DNA of 64,000 bases from sequence record PP261279.1. One strand, 5' to 3'. The notes under the pieces were generated by a model, which worked only from the letters and a program-made list of their open reading frames with translations, did no database searches and had not been told where the DNA came from. This document shows, piece by piece, positions 28,960 through 35,588 of this stretch. Source of the stretch: Escherichia phage ECP2303. Each line of letters starts with the position of its first letter. The first letter of the stretch is position 1. The position numbers and the translations under genes are program-made.

Positions 28960-29058
28960 GGTGCTAGGTGATGGAATCGAACCACCTATGTATTCAACGA
29001 CTACCTCGTCTATTTTCAGGATTAAAAATCCTCGCCCTTGCCAAAGGGCTTACCTAGC
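28960..29058 (-). tRNA. atypical tRNA-like gene (99 nt; Lys-type UUUUUAA anticodon loop; ~30-nt insertion before the T-arm)
   Basis: Perfect 7-bp acceptor (GCTAGGT/ACCTAGC), D-arm GCCC-TTTGGCAA-GGGC, 4-bp anticodon stem AGGA/TCCT with loop UUUUUAA, extra hairpin ACGA-GGTAG-TCGT, T-arm GGTGG-TTCGATT-CCATC; too long for a canonical type I tRNA and not folding as a standard type II. Confidence 0.35.
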
Positions 29059-29452: not shown

Positions 29453-29527
29453 TGGCACCCCGTACTGGACTCGAACCAGTGTCAACGGCTTAGAAGGCCG
29501 CTGCTTTATCCACTAAGCTAACAGGGC
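29453..29527 (-). tRNA. tRNA-Arg (anticodon UCU)
   Basis: Acceptor GCCCTGT/ACGGGGT (two G-U pairs), D-stem GCTT/AAGC, anticodon stem GCGGC/GCCGT with loop CUUCUAA, T-arm ACTGG-TTCGAGT-CCAGT, CCA encoded. Confidence 0.65.
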
Positions 29528-29585
29528 ACTGGGTGGCTTTCTTTTACACCTGAGCCGCCAGAAAAGGTGGGAGACCATGTTTATA

Positions 29586-29614
29586 ATATTACACTGTTAG
29601 GCAAAGTTTGTCAA
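29586..29614 (-). promoter_or_regulatory. sigma70-type promoter for the tRNA cluster
   Basis: Minus-strand TTGACA (29609-29614), 17-nt spacer, TAATAT (29586-29591) preceded by TG; about 55 nt upstream of tRNA-Arg. Confidence 0.5.
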
Positions 29615-29623
29615 GAAAATATT

Positions 29624-29962
29624 TTAACTATTGCCAACAGGCTGTATTTCTGTGGTAAATGGCATAAAAGGTGCTGGTTTTTCAGCCTCTTCTACTACCA
29701 CCTCTTCCTCTTCACCAAACATCTCATCATATTCTTCCTGCATTCGGTCTGCCTTATCAAGAACATACTCTGCAATGCTTTGACGAATATTTTGTTTGGT
29801 TTTCGGGTCCAACATCAGCTCTCTTAAAACTTTGTGAGCTTCTGGAACCATCGCTATAAAAGATTCCTTCATATCAAGGATGTTCTTCTCTAGCTGAATG
29901 GCGTTGGACTCCTCTTTCAGAGGTCTGCCTCTACGGCGACGCTTTTTAGTTGTATCCGCCAT
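29624..29962 (-). CDS. small basic/acidic protein with AT-hook-like KKRRRRGRP motif
   Basis: Start assigned to ATG at 29962 (GGAGGAAAC RBS), 112 aa; N-terminal Arg/Lys cluster with GRP core, C-terminal acidic tail; the longer track ORF (to 30082) would overlap the promoter. Confidence 0.45.
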   Translation of the reverse strand: MADTTKKRRRRGRPLKEESNAIQLEKNILDMKESFIAMVPEAHKVLRELMLDPKTKQNIRQSIAEYVLDKADRMQEEYDEMFGEEEEVVVEEAEKPAPFMPFTTEIQPVGNS

Positions 29963-29990
29963 GTTTCCTCCATTATCACGTGATAGGTGG

Positions 29991-30019
29991 ATTTTATCAC
30001 GGCAAATACTGATTGTCAA
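29991..30019 (-). promoter_or_regulatory. sigma70-type promoter
   Basis: Minus-strand TTGACA (30014-30019), 17-nt spacer, TAAAAT (29991-29996); a 7-bp-stem hairpin (30026-30046) abuts the -35. Confidence 0.45.
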
Positions 30020-30307
30020 GTTCGCCGCAGGGTGGTATTCCCTGCGACTTGCCCAGCGTCCTGGACCAGCAAGACCCAACAAGTGGGTTACCAGATACCC
30101 ATTACCGCGCTCTGGCTCGACCTTATTACAGGTTGGCTGGGGTCACATCGTCATGTGCTGGCTGCCCCTACCATTTTAAGTGTGGTGCACTATCAAGCCC
30201 TCTAAGGGGAACTCAGACTTCTCCGAACCCTGTTTCAAAGCATCCGGAGATAAAGCCATCAAACTCATCTTTAAATTGGATATTCATCATGATACACGAA
30301 AACAACC

Positions 30308-30550
30308 TCATTGTAAAGCACAAATAAATAAAACATACTTAATTTGTTTGTTATCGGGCTCAGGGTAGAAGTAGAAGATCTTGCTATCACCAATCTGCAC
30401 ACCACCATCCCAACAACATAAACCATAACCCGTATTCATACAAGCTAAGTCGTTTGCAAAATCTATTGCATCATCTAGTGCACGAAATTCACCTTCATCT
30501 TCTAAATAATCCTCATTCATGGAACGGAAAACGAGCTTAACCTTAAACAT
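30308..30550 (-). CDS. hypothetical early protein
   Basis: 80-aa acidic ORF. Confidence 0.4.
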   Translation of the reverse strand: MFKVKLVFRSMNEDYLEDEGEFRALDDAIDFANDLACMNTGYGLCCWDGGVQIGDSKIFYFYPEPDNKQIKYVLFICALQ

Positions 30551-30626
30551 AGCATTACCTGTAGACCTCGTAAGTTAAAATTGTATCACATCATATTGCA
30601 GATCTTATCAGGTAACATTATTTTTG

Positions 30627-30815
30627 TCAACAGATTCCGGCCTTATCCCTCCTGTCTGCGTATTCTTTAATCGCAACCTCACCTGCATTGGTAACCAGAT
30701 CTTCAAAGTAATTCTCAAGCTCCTCGTCAATGTCCGGTGACCAGCTCTTTTTCCTGTCAGTGTGAATTGCAGACTTGTTGAACTTATTACAATTCTTTGC
30801 TACCGGATTGTTCAT
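30627..30815 (-). CDS. hypothetical early protein
   Basis: 62-aa ORF. Confidence 0.35.
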   Translation of the reverse strand: MNNPVAKNCNKFNKSAIHTDRKKSWSPDIDEELENYFEDLVTNAGEVAIKEYADRRDKAGIC

Positions 30816-30825
30816 TAAGCTCTCC

Positions 30826-31404
30826 TCAACGTTCGTAGTAAATCTTATTCAACATTACCTCATCGTTTGCAGAAAGGATATCAAGATATGCATCACCAAA
30901 TCTGCCTGCAACAACCTCTGCATGATACATCACTTCGTTAACATCGTCAAGAGTGATAACCGGATGACCATATCTTTCTGAATATTGTCTCAGTGTGCGA
31001 TGTAACGAGTCGTCATCATATGCAGACTTTTTAATATCACAAACACGACGAATGGCCTTGATGTCGAAAAAACCTGTGCGATACCACCCAAGAAAAAAGT
31101 TCCGTGTAGTGTCAACATCTACATCAATACCATTAAGAACCTTATCTACAAGATAGCTGTCATCCTTTGGACTAGCGTCCTTAGTGCGAATGTAGTTGCC
31201 ATCTTTTCCAGGTGATAGCTCCTTCTCATCACCAACTTGCATGCCATCATTTGGCGGTGTTAGCCACTTATCAGGATGCTTACGATCACGAGCGTTAGAA
31301 TGATTACGCTGGAAACCTGGCTTCCACTTGAAAGTTTTCTCCATCTGTTCTTCATTCTGATAACGTTTTGCAATCTTTTCACTGGCATCTTTGCGTGAAC
31401 TCAT
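30826..31404 (-). CDS. hypothetical early protein
   Basis: 192-aa ORF with GAGGAG RBS; first gene downstream of the 660-bp non-coding hub. Confidence 0.45.
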   Translation of the reverse strand: MSSRKDASEKIAKRYQNEEQMEKTFKWKPGFQRNHSNARDRKHPDKWLTPPNDGMQVGDEKELSPGKDGNYIRTKDASPKDDSYLVDKVLNGIDVDVDTTRNFFLGWYRTGFFDIKAIRRVCDIKKSAYDDDSLHRTLRQYSERYGHPVITLDDVNEVMYHAEVVAGRFGDAYLDILSANDEVMLNKIYYER

Positions 31405-31908
31405 AGCAGACTCCTCTTCAAGTTATAGAAAAACTCACTGTATCGCTTTGTAACGAGCTTTTCTATCAAACTGGTGCGATTGCCTTACTTGGTATAGTTT
31501 ATATAGCTGTGGAGCGATTTAGGGGCCTTCTTGTCAGTTTCCACACATAAACTTTATCCGAACTCGCGCGGGAGGCTCTCAACCGACTCCTTCCGGCGCT
31601 GGCAAGCTTTCGTCGGTGGTACACATTAGTGCTCGGCCTTTGGCCTGCGCTATCGCTTCGCTCCCACACATGTTAACAGTCCTGCATGTATGCACTTCTG
31701 TTATTGTGTGCACTATGGAGGCCCGGCATCTCGCCCCTCGTAGGCGAGTGCCAATGAAGGGCCGACACTACCCATAATAAGTAATAAATTTAAAACATGG
31801 TACTTAGGATCTAGTATATTCTACATAAGTTAAGTATATGTACTTTAGTACCATAAGTACTAGATCTTTTATTTTTATTATTTAGTTATTTTAGTTATAT
31901 TCTTTATG

Positions 31909-31989
31909 TGTCCGTATCACGGACAGTTAGTGTCCGTATTACGGGCAGATGTGTCCGCGTGACGGACAGTAGTGTCCGTATCACGGACA
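31909..31989. repeat. array of four 17-bp palindromic iterons (TGTCCGT-ATC-ACGGACA) phased at 21-22 bp
   Basis: Copies at 31909-31925, 31931-31947 (variant), 31952-31968 (variant centre), 31973-31989; each has 7-bp inverted arms; read directly from sequence. Confidence 0.85.
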
Positions 31990-32064
31990 GTTACTAACCT
32001 CTGTTCCAGAGTGAACATAAAACATACAAATCCTTATAGTACAGATGTTTAAGTTTTTACTGGT

Positions 32065-32415
32065 CTAACCAGTTGTTGACATTCGAATAACTTCTTCTGG
32101 TGGCAAAACTTTGTAAAATGTGCATCTTTTACCTCTCCCTTGTGTGGATATTTCAACCACTCCTGCACATTCTAAAGTTTTAACGCACGCTGCTGCTTTT
32201 GTTTTCTTTATCCCAACATCTGCTGCAATTTTCCTTGTGCTGGGTGTGAAGCGTGAATTTTCTCCAAGCTTATACCAGTTGTGCAGATAGCAGTATACGA
32301 TCTTGTCATATAAGTCAAGAACAACAACCTCCCCAGTTGTGTCATTCAAAACTTTTGACATAGACAGTATTTCAAGGGGGACTTTAAGATATAGCAGCTT
32401 ATCCCCATCTTTCAT
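32065..32415 (-). CDS. winged-helix DNA-binding protein (putative transcriptional regulator or initiator)
   Basis: 116 aa; TRKIAADVGIKKTKAAACVKTLECAGVVEI has the helix-turn-helix pattern of wHTH regulators; gene ends ~75 bp from the iteron array. Confidence 0.5.
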   Translation of the reverse strand: MKDGDKLLYLKVPLEILSMSKVLNDTTGEVVVLDLYDKIVYCYLHNWYKLGENSRFTPSTRKIAADVGIKKTKAAACVKTLECAGVVEISTQGRGKRCTFYKVLPPEEVIRMSTTG

Positions 32416-32462
32416 ATCTCCTGATTCTCCTTGTGTGGCAATTTTCTTTAAAATAGCAGGGA

Positions 32463-33017
32463 TTACTCCCCGCTGTCAATAGCAAGACTCATTGCAATAC
32501 GGTATGCCTCTTCTAATGGTAAGAGTCTCCCCCACACATCCCAACCGACATCAAACTGCCTGCCAAACAACTGCTGTGTGGTTCCGTGAGCATGACCGAA
32601 CAGTTGGACTGATCCGTGAGGCTTTCTGTTCCACTTTGCAAACTGGTAATGGCTCATACAGATCAAATTCTTGTTGTGGCGAAGCTCGTAATAATCTACA
32701 ACCTCATGACCGAACTCTTTCATAATTCTGACAGTCGTTCTTGTGTCATGGTTACCACGAACAAGAATAATATGTCCGTTCAACATATTTAGAACATCTG
32801 GAAGCAGTTTGTTGATATTCTTATCATTAGTGCACGCAATATCCCCCAAGTGAAACACAGTGTCTGCAGGTGACACAACAGAGTTCCACTTGGTGATGAT
32901 TCCCGCATTCATACTGTCAAGATTGTGATCATACTGAGATCTGTGTTTTTGACATGAGTCGAACTCCATTACCCGCTGGTGGAGAAAGTGTGTGTCGCTT
33001 GTTACAAAGTATTTCAT
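32463..33017 (-). CDS. calcineurin-like metallophosphoesterase (putative RNA/DNA 3'-phosphatase)
   Basis: Start at ATG 33017 (GAGGAA RBS); motifs SDTHF, GDIACT, GNHD, GHAHG correspond to metallophosphatase motifs; coupled to the kinase gene. Confidence 0.65.
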   Translation of the reverse strand: MKYFVTSDTHFLHQRVMEFDSCQKHRSQYDHNLDSMNAGIITKWNSVVSPADTVFHLGDIACTNDKNINKLLPDVLNMLNGHIILVRGNHDTRTTVRIMKEFGHEVVDYYELRHNKNLICMSHYQFAKWNRKPHGSVQLFGHAHGTTQQLFGRQFDVGWDVWGRLLPLEEAYRIAMSLAIDSGE

Positions 33018-33024
33018 ACATTCC

Positions 33025-33435
33025 TCATTTAAGTTTAATGCAGTTTTTAAGCTGGCGTTCCATACGATCCACAACCCTGTCTGGAACATCATGAATGCTT
33101 TTATTACCATGGCGGTTTTCAACCACGATCACGGTATAACTATATCCATGACTGATCGCCATGTCAATATATTCTTGCACATATTTTTCTTTTGTAAACG
33201 TATTACTTACCACGATACGGTCGTAGCCCATACGCATCATATCTTCTACGTTATCTTTGCACCATTTTGCTGCAAGTGTTACTTTACTTGCATCCCAATT
33301 GTAATTGCCGTCATCGTCGTACCAGAACATATCGTTCTCAAAATGTGGATACAGACCTTCTAAAGATAGCGCATTTGCCAGTGTTGATTTGCCAGACCCT
33401 GGTAGACCACGCACGATATATAGCATTTTAGACAT
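33025..33435 (-). CDS. P-loop polynucleotide kinase-like protein
   Basis: Start at ATG 33435 (GGAGAG RBS); Walker A GLPGSGKST near N-terminus as in T4 Pnk kinase domain; 136 aa. Confidence 0.6.
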   Translation of the reverse strand: MSKMLYIVRGLPGSGKSTLANALSLEGLYPHFENDMFWYDDDGNYNWDASKVTLAAKWCKDNVEDMMRMGYDRIVVSNTFTKEKYVQEYIDMAISHGYSYTVIVVENRHGNKSIHDVPDRVVDRMERQLKNCIKLK

Positions 33436-33463
33436 AGTAACTCTCCGTTTTAATTTTAATGAT

Positions 33464-33492
33464 AGTATACCTAACTGTTTTGTTAATTTCAA
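33464..33492 (-). promoter_or_regulatory. sigma70-type promoter for the kinase/phosphatase operon
   Basis: Minus-strand TTGAAA, 17-nt spacer, TATACT; about 30 nt upstream of the kinase start. Confidence 0.4.
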
Positions 33493-33495
33493 GTG

Positions 33496-33524
33496 TTGAC
33501 ACCAGGTTATTTGTGTGGCAGAAT
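33496..33524 (+). promoter_or_regulatory. sigma70-type promoter opening the plus-strand block
   Basis: TTGACA, 17-nt spacer ending TGTGG, then CAGAAT; divergent from the minus-strand promoter. Confidence 0.4.
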
Positions 33525-33556
33525 AAAGGGACAAAATGACAAATGAGGAATGTATG

Positions 33557-34471
33557 ATGAAGTATTTTAATGCAGACGACCTGGTTGACAAAGGTCTTGT
33601 AACCAGCAGATATTACCCAGATCTTGGATTAAAGATCTACAAATATGCCAGAAAAGTATTCTACAACAATTTATGGCATTTGTCTCCGCGTTTACTAGAG
33701 TGCCGAGGCATTGTTGTCGGTAATGAAGGAAATGTTGTGGCATGGCCCTTCACAAAAGTGTTTAATTTGGGAGAAAACTCCACCAACCTGCCTGACAATA
33801 AACTTGTGACGGCGGTAGAGAAAAAGAACGGATTCCTTGGTGTGGTATCATCTCATAAAGGTGAACTATTGTTTTCAACAACCGGGTCTCTTGATTCTCC
33901 ATATTGTAACCTTGCAAAGGAAACCATCCAGGAGCAATGTGGTAATTTAGATCTCATCAAAAAGGTTATGGGCCATGAAAACATGACATTCATGTTTGAA
34001 ATTTGTCACCCTTCAGATCCGCATATTGTTCAGGAAGACCATGGCGCATATTTGATAGGTTGCAGATATAACGATTCTGGAATAATGCTACCAGAAGCAG
34101 CTTTAGATGGGATTGCCAAATACCTTGGTGCAAAACGTCCTCACACTGTGCGTGAAATTCCGTTCAGCTATGCAAAAGAATTAGCTGCAGAAACAAGAGG
34201 TGAAGGGTATATGATTCGTAAGCCTTACTACCCTTATGATCTGCAGCTGAAGATCAAGTCTCCATACTATTTGGCACGGAAGGCCGTAATGAGGGGTAAA
34301 GCTTGGAAGATTTGGGATGATGATATCTTTAAACGTATTGACGAAGAGTTTTACGGCATGGTAAACTTCATTCGTAACAATTACACAGAAGATGTGTGGA
34401 ACTGCCTCCTAGAGCAGGAACGCCGTGAGATACTTGACTGCTATTTCCACAACGAGGACTATATGCAATGA
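33557..34471 (+). CDS. RNA ligase 1 (T4 RnlA-like)
   Basis: LECRGIVVGNEG and FNLGEN match T4 Rnl1 (LECRGIMFEMDG, FNLNEN); nucleotidyltransferase motif I KKNGFL matches KEDGSL; start assigned to ATG with GAGGAA RBS (track start 33536). Confidence 0.75.
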   Translation: MKYFNADDLVDKGLVTSRYYPDLGLKIYKYARKVFYNNLWHLSPRLLECRGIVVGNEGNVVAWPFTKVFNLGENSTNLPDNKLVTAVEKKNGFLGVVSSHKGELLFSTTGSLDSPYCNLAKETIQEQCGNLDLIKKVMGHENMTFMFEICHPSDPHIVQEDHGAYLIGCRYNDSGIMLPEAALDGIAKYLGAKRPHTVREIPFSYAKELAAETRGEGYMIRKPYYPYDLQLKIKSPYYLARKAVMRGKAWKIWDDDIFKRIDEEFYGMVNFIRNNYTEDVWNCLLEQERREILDCYFHNEDYMQ

Positions 34472-34826: not shown

Positions 34827-35588
34827 ATGCGACGACTGATCATTATCTCCGGTGCTGGTTTGAGCGCTGAATCTGGTATCCCAACTTTCCGATCTGGTGG
34901 CACTGCAATGTGGGAGAATTTCAGCATCGATGAGGTGTGTAACATCCACACCTTTGCCAAGAACTACTATAAGGTTCATGACTTTTACAATGCACGGCGT
35001 GTAGCTCTTGGCAGTGTTGATCCTAACCTTGCACATCTCCGGATCGCTGAGTGGTATTCCCGCTGGTCTGGTCGTGTGATCAACCTGACCACCAATGTAG
35101 ATGATTTGCTGGAGCGTGCTGGTGTAAAACATGAAGATATTTTACATGTCCACGGATATTTGCCAGAAATAGTCTACAAGGATGATGAAGGGAGTAACGT
35201 CATTAAAGACATTGGATACTCTGAGGTAGATGCAAGCAAGTATACTTGGGTTAAGCCTAATGTAGTGTTCTTCGGAGAAGTAGCTCCAAAGTATACAGAC
35301 ATGTATGACCTGTTGACTTCTCTGACGAGCAATGATATGGTTATCCTTGTAGGGTGCTCCAACACAGTTATCAATTTTAACTGGGAGCTATTCCCTGCCT
35401 GTAATAAGGGGACCAAACTGCTGATCGTTAACAAATACGACTCACAGCATTTAGGGGAGAATGGCATTTCACGTAGTGACATTTACCAGTATGAGGATCG
35501 CGGCATCCCAGTTTGGTTTAACGGGGCTGTTGACGCTTTCTCTGATAAAACATTCATTGACATCGTAGAAAACTTTATGGAACTGTAA
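34827..35588 (+). CDS. Sir2-family (sirtuin-like) NAD-dependent protein, lacking the zinc ribbon
   Basis: GAGLSAESGIPTFR, TTNVDDLLERAG, catalytic-type HG (LHVHGYL), VVFFGE, LVGCS; no CxxC...CxxC zinc motif. Confidence 0.8.
   Translation: MRRLIIISGAGLSAESGIPTFRSGGTAMWENFSIDEVCNIHTFAKNYYKVHDFYNARRVALGSVDPNLAHLRIAEWYSRWSGRVINLTTNVDDLLERAGVKHEDILHVHGYLPEIVYKDDEGSNVIKDIGYSEVDASKYTWVKPNVVFFGEVAPKYTDMYDLLTSLTSNDMVILVGCSNTVINFNWELFPACNKGTKLLIVNKYDSQHLGENGISRSDIYQYEDRGIPVWFNGAVDAFSDKTFIDIVENFMEL

Follow-up and report, generated by a model that had tools for sequence, protein, structure and literature searches.

A candidate iteron-type replication origin beside a small winged-helix protein gene in rV5-like phages

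The replication origin of phage lambda combines four 19-bp imperfect inverted-repeat iterons with an AT-rich tract; two iterons and the tract form the minimal origin, and iteron number differs between related lambdoid phages (PMC7466680). RepA_N-family initiators, for which we rely on Barth et al., NAR 2020 (PMC7145576), bind as dimers to semi-palindromic iterons whose arms converge on a poly-A tract and which usually lie inside the rep gene. The RepA_N-family initiator RepA of the Vibrio cholerae PLE, whose N-terminal domain is represented by PDB entry 4RO3, binds the semi-palindromic iterons of the PLE origin, as observed by electrophoretic mobility-shift assay and deletion, and depends on a superfamily 1B (SF1B) helicase and the ICP1 replisome (PMC7145576). 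Phage ICP1 in turn encodes an origin-directed nuclease, Odn (gp88/ORF88), that finds the PLE iterons with a DUF6945/RepA_N-like domain (PMC8263062). In the 64,000-nucleotide stretch of Escherichia phage ECP2303 analyzed here (record PP261279.1; hereafter, the window), four phased palindromic repeats (positions 31908-31993; the array) lie beside the gene of a 116-residue winged helix-turn-helix (wHTH) protein. The array probably serves as the iterons of a theta-type replication origin in rV5-like phages, and this origin would work with a truncated initiator that consists of the N-terminal domain only.

The locus resembles the lambda origin in its four phased imperfect inverted repeats of 17-19 bp, in the AT-rich candidate unwinding tract directly beside them, in an iteron number that varies (four, three or two copies among vequintaviruses) and in transcription that would enter the origin from upstream. 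Like lambda O, the rV5 protein is predicted to bind as a dimer through an N-terminal winged-helix domain, and arrays of the rV5 motif, TGTCCG-N5-CGGACA, are found inside O-like genes of other phages. In contrast to lambda, the iterons are located 75 bp past the stop codon rather than mid-gene and have another sequence. Lambda O also has a C-terminal domain that binds P to bring DnaB, whereas the rV5 protein has none, and the phage itself, a virulent myovirus of 137 kb, encodes its own replisome.

In both sequence and fold, the rV5 protein is closest to RepA_N initiators (PLE RepA, 4RO3; staphylococcal pSK41/pTZ2162 RepA, 4PQL, 4PT7 and 5KBJ), and its presumed sites are likewise semi-palindromic direct repeats. 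The centers of these sites (TATCA, TATTA and CGTGA) differ from the poly-A center of RepA_N iterons, their 21- to 22-bp units are shorter than the ∼30-bp PLE iterons, and they stand outside the coding sequence. Moreover, RepA_N elements are plasmids or satellites, whereas rV5 is a virulent phage. Odn uses the same DNA-binding domain. However, the rV5 protein lacks a nuclease domain, and the sites it presumably binds belong to the same phage and adjoin the gene that encodes it; it is therefore not an anti-satellite nuclease. The distant relatives P0009 and P0012 carry a T5orf172/MUG113 or GIY-YIG nuclease fused to an HTH_36/DUF6945 domain, which is the architecture of Odn and suggests from sequence that Odn-like iteron-targeting nucleases may be more widely spread. 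As a kind of system, the rV5 locus would be classical, with iterons, an unwinding element and a wHTH initiator; what sets it apart is that the initiator is reduced to the N-terminal domain, that the iterons follow the stop codon and that the phage is a large virulent myovirus.

Repeat array and AT-rich flank

The array consists of one direct-repeat family with four copies of 21 or 22 bp that start at positions 31908, 31930, 31951 and 31972 (spacing of 22, 21 and 21 bp). The repeat unit, GTGTCCG-N5-CGGACAGTNN, reaches beyond the palindrome, and its conserved core, TGTCCG-N5-CGGACA, combines 6-bp arms with a variable 5-bp center, so that the copies are semi-palindromic direct repeats. The initial annotation, made from the letters alone, had described four 17-bp palindromes with this phasing, and a repeat finder and a motif search both returned the same four sites. 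Its perfect copies 1 and 4 were also recovered: copy 1 is a perfect palindrome, and the copy 4 unit is identical to that of copy 1. The palindrome is genuine, but the true repeat is the 21/22-bp direct repeat that extends past it. Copy 2, which had been credited with one arm change, differs from copy 1 at two positions, one in the center (ATC to ATT) and one in the arm (ACGGACA to ACGGGCA). The changed center of copy 3 is present as described, but its 7-bp arms are not intact; the seventh arm base is altered too, which leaves conserved arms of 6 bp.

The sites are unique to the array. The 17-mer TGTCCGTATCACGGACA, searched with up to three mismatches, matched only positions 31909, 31931, 31952 and 31973 in the 64 kb, against a chance expectation of 0.04 matches, and the observed count was reached in none of 100 shuffles. 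Whole-genome counts were made on Escherichia phage ECP2309 (136,863 bp, ∼137 kb; the phage GC content is 43%), where TGTCCG-N5-CGGACA occurs in the array and nowhere else. The phased repeats of this motif are confined to the candidate origin, as iterons are in iteron-type origins. Window positions 31400-32500 match ECP2309 at 100% identity and another 117 records at 91-99%. All 118 are rV5-like Vequintavirus records, and in every one of them the gene and the array are linked, with the candidate initiator gene 75 bp from the array and the iterons outside the coding sequence. Some of these records are named 'Campylobacter phage' and are classified as Vequintavirus; one that was inspected is marked UNVERIFIED.

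The non-coding region was aligned among 15 vequintaviruses, including metagenomic ones with a wHTH protein of 86% identity. The arms contain a single variable site in 48 positions (31945, G or A), at which A is the consensus; genomes L001 and L009 have A there and thereby restore the consensus arm. The inter-site spacers have no variable site in 13 positions. Variation in the array is found in the centers, with several variable sites in 20 positions, such as the iteron 3 center CGTGG of L003 and L061-63. The most variable stretch of the whole region is the 27 bp directly to the right of the array (31994-32020). Insertions and deletions are exact units of 21, 22 or 42 bp, and copy number is four, three or two: FFH2 (L006) lacks the whole iteron 1 unit and keeps three copies, A135 (L005) lacks one 21-bp unit at the iteron 3/4 junction and also keeps three, and YN3 (L004) lacks two units (42 bp) and keeps two. 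As judged from the alignment, this variation pattern is that of a selected protein-binding tandem array. Positions 1-590 of MG065672.1 (phage A141) correspond to window positions 31405-31993, such that the record begins exactly at the right-hand end of the array; a second matching place is found elsewhere in the same record. This start at the array is most likely an assembly break at a tandem repeat.

No other 100-120 bp of the 136.9-kb genome are as unstable or as AT-rich as the tract directly to the left of iteron 1 (31782-31907). Its nearest-neighbor stacking energy is -102.2 per 100 bp, compared with a genome mean of -133.5 (standard deviation of 5.7) and a runner-up of -110.4, which places it ∼5.5 standard deviations off the mean. 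The tract is strongly conserved in the aligned vequintavirus relatives and holds an inverted repeat, GATCTAGTA/TACTAGATC (31808-31816 and 31858-31866). It also contains one exact match to GATCTnTTnTTTT, which we take to be the Escherichia coli oriC 13-mer consensus; the comparison was made after the sequence had been seen and is suggestive only. An AT-rich element thus adjoins the iterons, as it does in iteron origins, and the same holds for the repeats of Klebsiella phage KB57 and for several other motif arrays described below.

Past the AT-rich tract, the non-coding region continues into a GC-rich island. The island includes a strong hairpin at ∼31721-31764 (GGCATCTCGCC...GGCGAGTGCC) and two copies of CCACACAT (31541 and 31664), a third copy of which stands outside the island at 32532. 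Some relatives show an 18-bp indel between the TGTATGCACT/TGTGTGCACT repeats of the island, and some records annotate short open reading frames (ORFs) in it. No coding signal was seen in the island. The island folds somewhat more stably than its shuffles (minimum free energy z of -4.0 on the plus strand and -2.8 on the minus strand), no convincing covariation was found in it, and an Rfam scan of 29500-32500 gave no match. The possibility that the island is the decayed C-terminal half of an O-like gene was rejected, as tblastn with ten array-linked initiators matched the iterons only.

The 116-residue winged-helix protein

The gene nearest to the array had been annotated as encoding a winged-helix-like protein, and Pfam, an AlphaFold2 (AF2) model and Foldseek agree on this assignment. 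The protein matches PHROG 12838, 'replication initiation protein', with an E value of 2e-78 and more weakly matches other initiator and O-like families (O-like, E 4.4e-3). In Pfam, DUF6945 (PF22182), which appears to model the N-terminal domain of PLE RepA, is matched with 28.5 bits at a cut-off of 28, and HTH_36 falls just below its cut-off (24.8 versus 25 bits). Weak Pfam matches to the DNA-binding domains of TrmB, CodY and LexA were also obtained, and neither RepA_N (PF06970) nor Phage_rep_O (PF04492) was matched. In a phmmer search of the PDB, 4RO3 was the only significant sequence match (E 9.4e-6).

A single-sequence AF2 prediction was useless (predicted local distance difference test score, pLDDT, of 34), and the model required a 13-sequence alignment of distant relatives (A4), with which it reached a pLDDT of 81.8 and a predicted template-modeling score (pTM) of 0.76. 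The top seven PDB chains in Foldseek are all structures of RepA_N N-terminal domains (4RO3, 4PQL, 4PT7 and 5KBJ); 4PTA is at rank 32. The best match is 4RO3 (E 7.8e-7, TM score of 0.67), and 5KBJ is a complex of Rep with iteron DNA. The generic wHTH regulators CodY, ArsR and MarR rank below the RepA_N structures. In BFVD, the fold matches include DUF6945 proteins, phage 'replication protein' entries and ICP1 ORF88 (Odn). The modeled fold is that of the N-terminal winged-helix (DnaD-like) DNA-binding domain of the RepA_N type. The protein ends at residue 116 and comprises this domain alone, and the host- or replisome-specific C-terminal domain of RepA_N proteins is absent. On the basis of the model, the protein is best read as a stand-alone iteron-binding N-terminal domain of RepA_N/lambda-O-like initiators.

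No close homolog was found outside the genus: tblastn on 50,697 phage records and a search of 5.8 billion proteins gave only proteins with at least 84% identity, and an exhaustive HMMER search added remote relatives only (E 4e-8 or worse). The loci of the small distant homologs P0014, P0018 and P0019 have no clear phased palindromic array beside the gene. The O-like relatives P0013 and P0017 carry short peptide repeats, such as SESERSESERSESER, that resemble translated in-gene iterons; these would be another sign that in-gene iterons are common in this protein clan. GenBank records name the vequintavirus gene 'transcriptional regulator' (in many, 'putative transcriptional regulator'), 'replication initiation protein' or 'DsrC like protein', and they label the array at most 'repeat_region'. 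The candidate origin also cautions against the label 'transcriptional regulator'.

Counterparts in other phages

Klebsiella phage KB57 (Mydovirus, same subfamily) encodes KB57_095, a diverged wHTH homolog of 122 residues (hhalign against A4: probability of 93.9%, E 1.6e-7), in a neighborhood like that of rV5, with phosphoesterase, RNA ligase, Sir2 and a tRNA block. Adjoining KB57_095 are TATTCC-N6-GGAATA repeats in 24-bp units, with two tandem copies and a degenerate third 59 bp off, whose exact form is unique in the 143-kb genome. An AT-rich tract follows the repeats and contains three GATCT motifs, one of them within AGATCTTTTA, the core of the 13-mer that is also present in the rV5 tract. 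It is the least stable 100 bp of the KB57 genome, although narrowly (-105.8 versus a runner-up of -106.7). The KB57 sites occupy a divergent intergenic region at the 5′ end of the gene, and the gene is oriented to them in the opposite way to rV5; nevertheless, the order of gene, palindromes and AT-rich tract is kept in both phages, and the site sequence has changed together with the protein. The KB57 module is an uncharacterized analogue rather than a described system; it is probably the Mydovirus counterpart of the rV5 module and, at the level of sequence, an independent replicate of it. The whole-genome GC skew of KB57 is uninformative, because its extremes coincide with the start of the record and with position 114 kb. 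At the syntenic phosphoesterase locus of the Phapecoctavirus 'anhysbys', the 7.5 kb examined contain no comparable module.

The motif also recurs far from the vequintaviruses. A scan of IMG/VR by DNA pattern alone (TGTCCG-N5-CGGACA-N4-5-TGTCCG) returned 35 contigs from at least eight unrelated groups with GC contents of 36-70%, none of which has a tblastn-detectable homolog of the rV5 protein. Phased arrays of three to seven copies with 20- to 25-bp spacing are present in many of these contigs and in a few bacterial metagenome-assembled genomes (MAGs). In L045, L023, L041, L031/L039, L024, group A (L037) and L053, the array lies inside an ORF, just past an N-terminal wHTH of the HTH_36 type, as iterons do in lambda O and RepA_N genes. 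PHROG 'replication initiation / O-like' families are matched by the proteins of L045 (3.8e-25), L023 (8.7e-15), L041 (1.5e-9), L031/L039 (∼1e-6) and L024 (1e-4). The L045 initiator gene adjoins a gene for single-stranded DNA-binding protein (SSB) and has tblastn matches in records of Stx-converting lambdoid phages, the best of which are annotated 'replication initiation O-like'; the L024 initiator has no match in the phage collection. The L037 and L041 proteins are short (∼133-143 residues) with the array at the 3′ end, a layout that appears to approach that of rV5. When the wHTH cores of the array-linked proteins were compared with the rV5 family, hhalign gave a probability of 84% (E 7.6e-6).

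The instability of the flank recurs in part of these loci. The least stable 100 bp of the locus is beside the array or within ∼110 bp of it in L053, L041 and L023, the array-flanking tract is the second least stable in L031 and the third in L037, and the minimum of L045 and L024 is away from the array. The contig L017 shares the center variants CGTGG and TATTG with vequintaviruses. From these comparisons, TGTCCG-N5-CGGACA looks like a widespread iteron specificity class.

The origin and competing explanations

The analysis shows how the sites are built, that they are unique and conserved, to which family and fold the protein belongs, how unstable the flank is and that the arrangement recurs in other phages. 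From this we infer protein binding at the sites, opening of the tract and initiation of replication at this locus. In the proposed mechanism, dimers of the 116-residue protein (gp075 in rV5) would bind the four TGTCCG-N5-CGGACA sites, and the spacing of two helical turns would align the dimers along one helical face. They would form an O-some-like nucleoprotein complex that would bend or wrap the DNA and, together with negative supercoiling and transcription from an upstream promoter, would open the adjoining tract 31782-31907. Because the protein has no C-terminal recruitment domain, the helicase that enters the opened DNA, directly or via a partner, would presumably be the phage gp4-type primase-helicase and/or SF1B helicase. 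rV5 has a PIF1/RecD-like SF1B helicase, and ICP1 is among the closest homologs of its polymerase (PMC3606486). The helicase and replisome dependence of PLE RepA offers a suggestive parallel for how helicase loading might proceed.

Several points weigh against an origin. The weak point is the mechanism of helicase loading, as the recruitment domain is missing; the protein belongs to neither Phage_rep_O nor the group of initiators with a C-terminal helicase-loader domain, and tblastn found no remnant of a C-terminal domain downstream of the gene. Family membership is marginal, with DUF6945 0.5 bit above and HTH_36 below the cut-off, and the PHROG 'replication initiation' names are annotations rather than tested functions. 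The iterons stand 75 bp past the stop codon, as opposed to inside the gene in lambda and RepA_N replicons, the module is ∼60 kb from the phage polymerase and helicase genes, and the non-coding region contains no DnaA box with up to one mismatch. Recombination-dependent initiation and the use of several origins are common in large virulent phages, for which a single iteron origin may be dispensable. Genome-wide, cumulative GC skew reaches its minimum at 97,906 in ECP2309 (window 33,446), 1.5 kb from the iterons. This minimum agrees with an origin, but it falls in the divergent intergenic region 33436-33535, between the polynucleotide kinase (PNK)-like kinase and RNA ligase genes, where the switch in transcription direction accounts for the skew equally well. 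The authors of the rV5 genome also found that skew could not separate origin from transcription effects, and they did not define an origin (PMC3606486). On the other side, a minimal lambda origin of two iterons and an AT tract fits the apparent viability of the two- and three-copy variants, if their assemblies are correct.

Transcriptional control is the weaker reading and is unlikely to be the main role of the array, although it may coexist with an origin; a dual role in origin function and autoregulation is common for initiators. The wHTH protein would then act as a repressor or activator on the four sites and control either read-through from the PNK/phosphoesterase/wHTH mini-operon into the small genes, tRNAs and late genes that follow, or promoters that the AT-rich tract might contain. 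Phased palindromes bound by wHTH dimers are typical of repressors, a reading with which the weak TrmB, CodY and LexA matches and the 'putative transcriptional regulator' label are consistent. Furthermore, the array is at the border between an early-looking mini-operon and the tRNA/lysis/structural block, and the KB57 palindromes occupy the divergent promoter region right 5′ of the homolog, a classic autoregulatory position. However, in rV5-like phages the gene precedes the sites, and the transcribed strand has no promoter-like sequence at or next to them. A consensus scan of 31405-32064, a weak test to which phage-specific promoters are not visible, found no minus-strand promoter-like site and thus no -35/-10 element of a regulated promoter at the sites; its sole match near the array was a weak plus-strand one in the hypervariable spacer (32012-32040). 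The rV5 record annotates no promoter at the array either.

Other evidence also speaks against an operator. Initiators outrank regulators among the sequence and fold relatives, and arrays of the same motif elsewhere are embedded in the coding sequences of initiators, an unlikely position for an operator. The sites are on the 3′ side of the gene in rV5 and on the 5′ side in KB57, while the order of gene, sites and AT-rich DNA is kept; an operator would be expected to keep its place relative to the promoter of the gene, which an origin need not do. An operator also leaves the least stable DNA of the genome at the flank unaccounted for. The initial annotation had proposed an operator array bound by the wHTH protein. 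Binding of the array sites by this protein is likely, given that the sites resemble those of dimeric winged-helix proteins, that the adjacent gene matches iteron-binding domains, that gene and array are linked throughout and that KB57 has a corresponding pair. In contrast, the 'graded-affinity operator' for flanking promoters is poorly supported, given the downstream position of the array, the lack of an overlapping minus-strand promoter, the initiator relatives, the meltable flank and the in-gene arrays elsewhere. An origin at the array extends that annotation, which had already named replication among the processes that the array might affect, and does not contradict it.

There is little probability that the array is a pac site at which the wHTH protein, as a terminase small subunit, recognizes the repeats and headful packaging series start; Nu1, which recognizes the R sites in lambda cosB, is the model for such a role. 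Vequintaviruses are circularly permuted, headful-type packagers (PMC3606486, PMC8407724, PMC13211470), the small terminase subunit is unannotated in their genomes, the large terminase gene belongs to the same transcription unit, ∼4.2 kb further on, and the A141 record starts exactly at the array. However, no terminase family in Pfam, PHROG or NCBIfam is matched by the protein, whose relatives are RepA_N/O-like N-terminal domains. The large terminase gene is not adjacent but separated by tRNAs, spanins and several ORFs, the motif arrays of other contigs are in replication modules (beside SSB in L045), a record that starts at a tandem repeat more probably reflects a break in assembly, and a pac site does not require an extreme AT-rich flank. 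An RNA element is just as improbable: the palindromes could form tandem stem-loops (6- to 7-bp stem, 3- to 5-nt loop) as processing, stability or attenuation signals in a read-through transcript, the region is probably transcribed, with no terminator predicted between gene and array, and the conserved stems and variable loops of the relatives form a hairpin-like pattern, but no compensatory changes occur, the arms are kept in sequence beyond mere pairing, their recurrence in unrelated phages with GC contents from 36 to 70% points to protein recognition, G at 31945 in copy 2 produces a C-A mismatch in the sense (minus-strand) RNA, the hairpins have no U-tract after them and no Rfam match, and helical phasing of 21/22 bp is meaningless for RNA.

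The genes that flank the array are all on the minus strand and form one unidirectional unit. Past the non-coding region, the minus-strand order continues with small ORFs, seven tRNA genes, spanins, the large terminase and head and tail genes; on the other side, transcription diverges at 33436-33535. Transcription from the promoter upstream of the wHTH gene would traverse the gene into the array, with no terminator-like site predicted on the way. An apparent tRNA-repair set (32463-34471), with the PNK-like AAA_33 kinase, the metallophosphoesterase and a T4 Rnl1-type RNA ligase, adjoins the candidate origin and the tRNA cluster; a Sir2-like gene follows it (34827-35588), and this neighborhood is also kept in KB57. 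Between tRNA-Thr and tRNA-Ser, ARAGORN predicts a 99-nt tRNA-like gene with a four-base anticodon (atcc) at 28960-29058 (minus strand). The slur16 RefSeq record likewise annotates a tRNA with a four-base anticodon, which could be an intron-bearing tRNA, a pseudo-tRNA or an artefact.

Table 1. Coordinates of the candidate origin, its surroundings and related loci (window positions unless a locus or record is named)
Feature	Position	Strand	Remarks
Non-coding region	31405-32064		660 bp, between wHTH gene and small ORFs
GC-rich island, non-coding	31500-31780		GC 53-60%; past AT-rich tract; hairpin at ∼31721-31764
AT-rich tract, candidate DNA-unwinding element	31782-31907		126 bp, GC 19%; directly left of iteron 1
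GATCTTTTATTTT	31863-31875	+	Sole exact GATCTnTTnTTTT match in 64 kb; 33 bp from iteron 1
Iteron 1	31908-31929		22-bp unit GTGTCCGTATCACGGACAGTTA; perfect palindrome 31909-31925; copy closest to AT-rich tract
Iteron 2	31930-31950		Palindrome 31931-31947, TGTCCGTATTACGGGCA; right arm degenerate, G for A at 31945
Iteron 3	31951-31971		Palindrome 31952-31968, TGTCCGCGTGACGGACA; 6-bp arms intact, center CGTGA
Iteron 4	31972-31993		22-bp unit identical to iteron 1; palindrome 31973-31989
Spacer, array to wHTH stop codon	31994-32064		Most variable non-coding stretch; many substitutions at ∼31994-32020
wHTH protein gene (rV5 ORF79/gp075)	32065-32415	-	116 residues; candidate iteron-binding initiator, N-terminal domain only
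Sigma-70-like promoter, TTGACA-18-TATTTT with TG	32450-32479	-	Upstream of wHTH gene; 'P76' in rV5 RefSeq
Metallophosphoesterase gene	32463-33017	-	
PNK-like AAA_33 kinase gene	33025-33435	-	
KB57 module	L070:1568-2152 (record 71533-72117)		Homolog, TATTCC-N6-GGAATA repeats and unstable tract
IMG/VR motif loci, L015-L049	e.g. L017:4906-5071, L024:6316-6460, L031:6856-6966, L037:8056-8139		
Bacterial-genome motif loci, L050-L060	e.g. L053:1495-1579		L053 is a Treponema MAG

Literature searches found no published description of an rV5-like/Vequintavirus origin, and, as far as titles and abstracts tell, the matches for TGTCCG and iteron are unrelated to this motif. A wider proposal is tentative: that in rV5-like phages, and in Mydovirus at least, replication starts from one iteron origin whose initiator is a minimal DNA-binding domain of ∼115 residues from the RepA_N/lambda-O lineage, without a recruitment domain, and that TGTCCG-N5-CGGACA at two-turn spacing is an iteron 'word' shared widely by very divergent initiators (<40% identity) in phages of hosts with GC contents of 36-70%. 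Iteron specificity normally diverges fast, and a shared word would be unusual. If the proposal is true, origin opening and helicase loading would be uncoupled from the initiator C-terminus, and a gp4-type or SF1B helicase would load on iteron-opened DNA or via a partner.

Vequintaviruses, which include rV5, FV3 and many therapy and biocontrol isolates, have so far been without a defined origin. The candidate of ∼640 bp (31782-32415), with gene, iterons and unwinding tract, makes the origin question directly testable and may be of use in phage engineering, both for building replicons and for sparing the origin from disruption. It would offer a natural case of how an initiator without a recruitment domain starts replication, which ties it to the question of how RepA_N proteins such as PLE RepA work with a phage replisome. 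The recurring iteron motif would also provide a handle on how wHTH initiators keep or change their DNA specificity.

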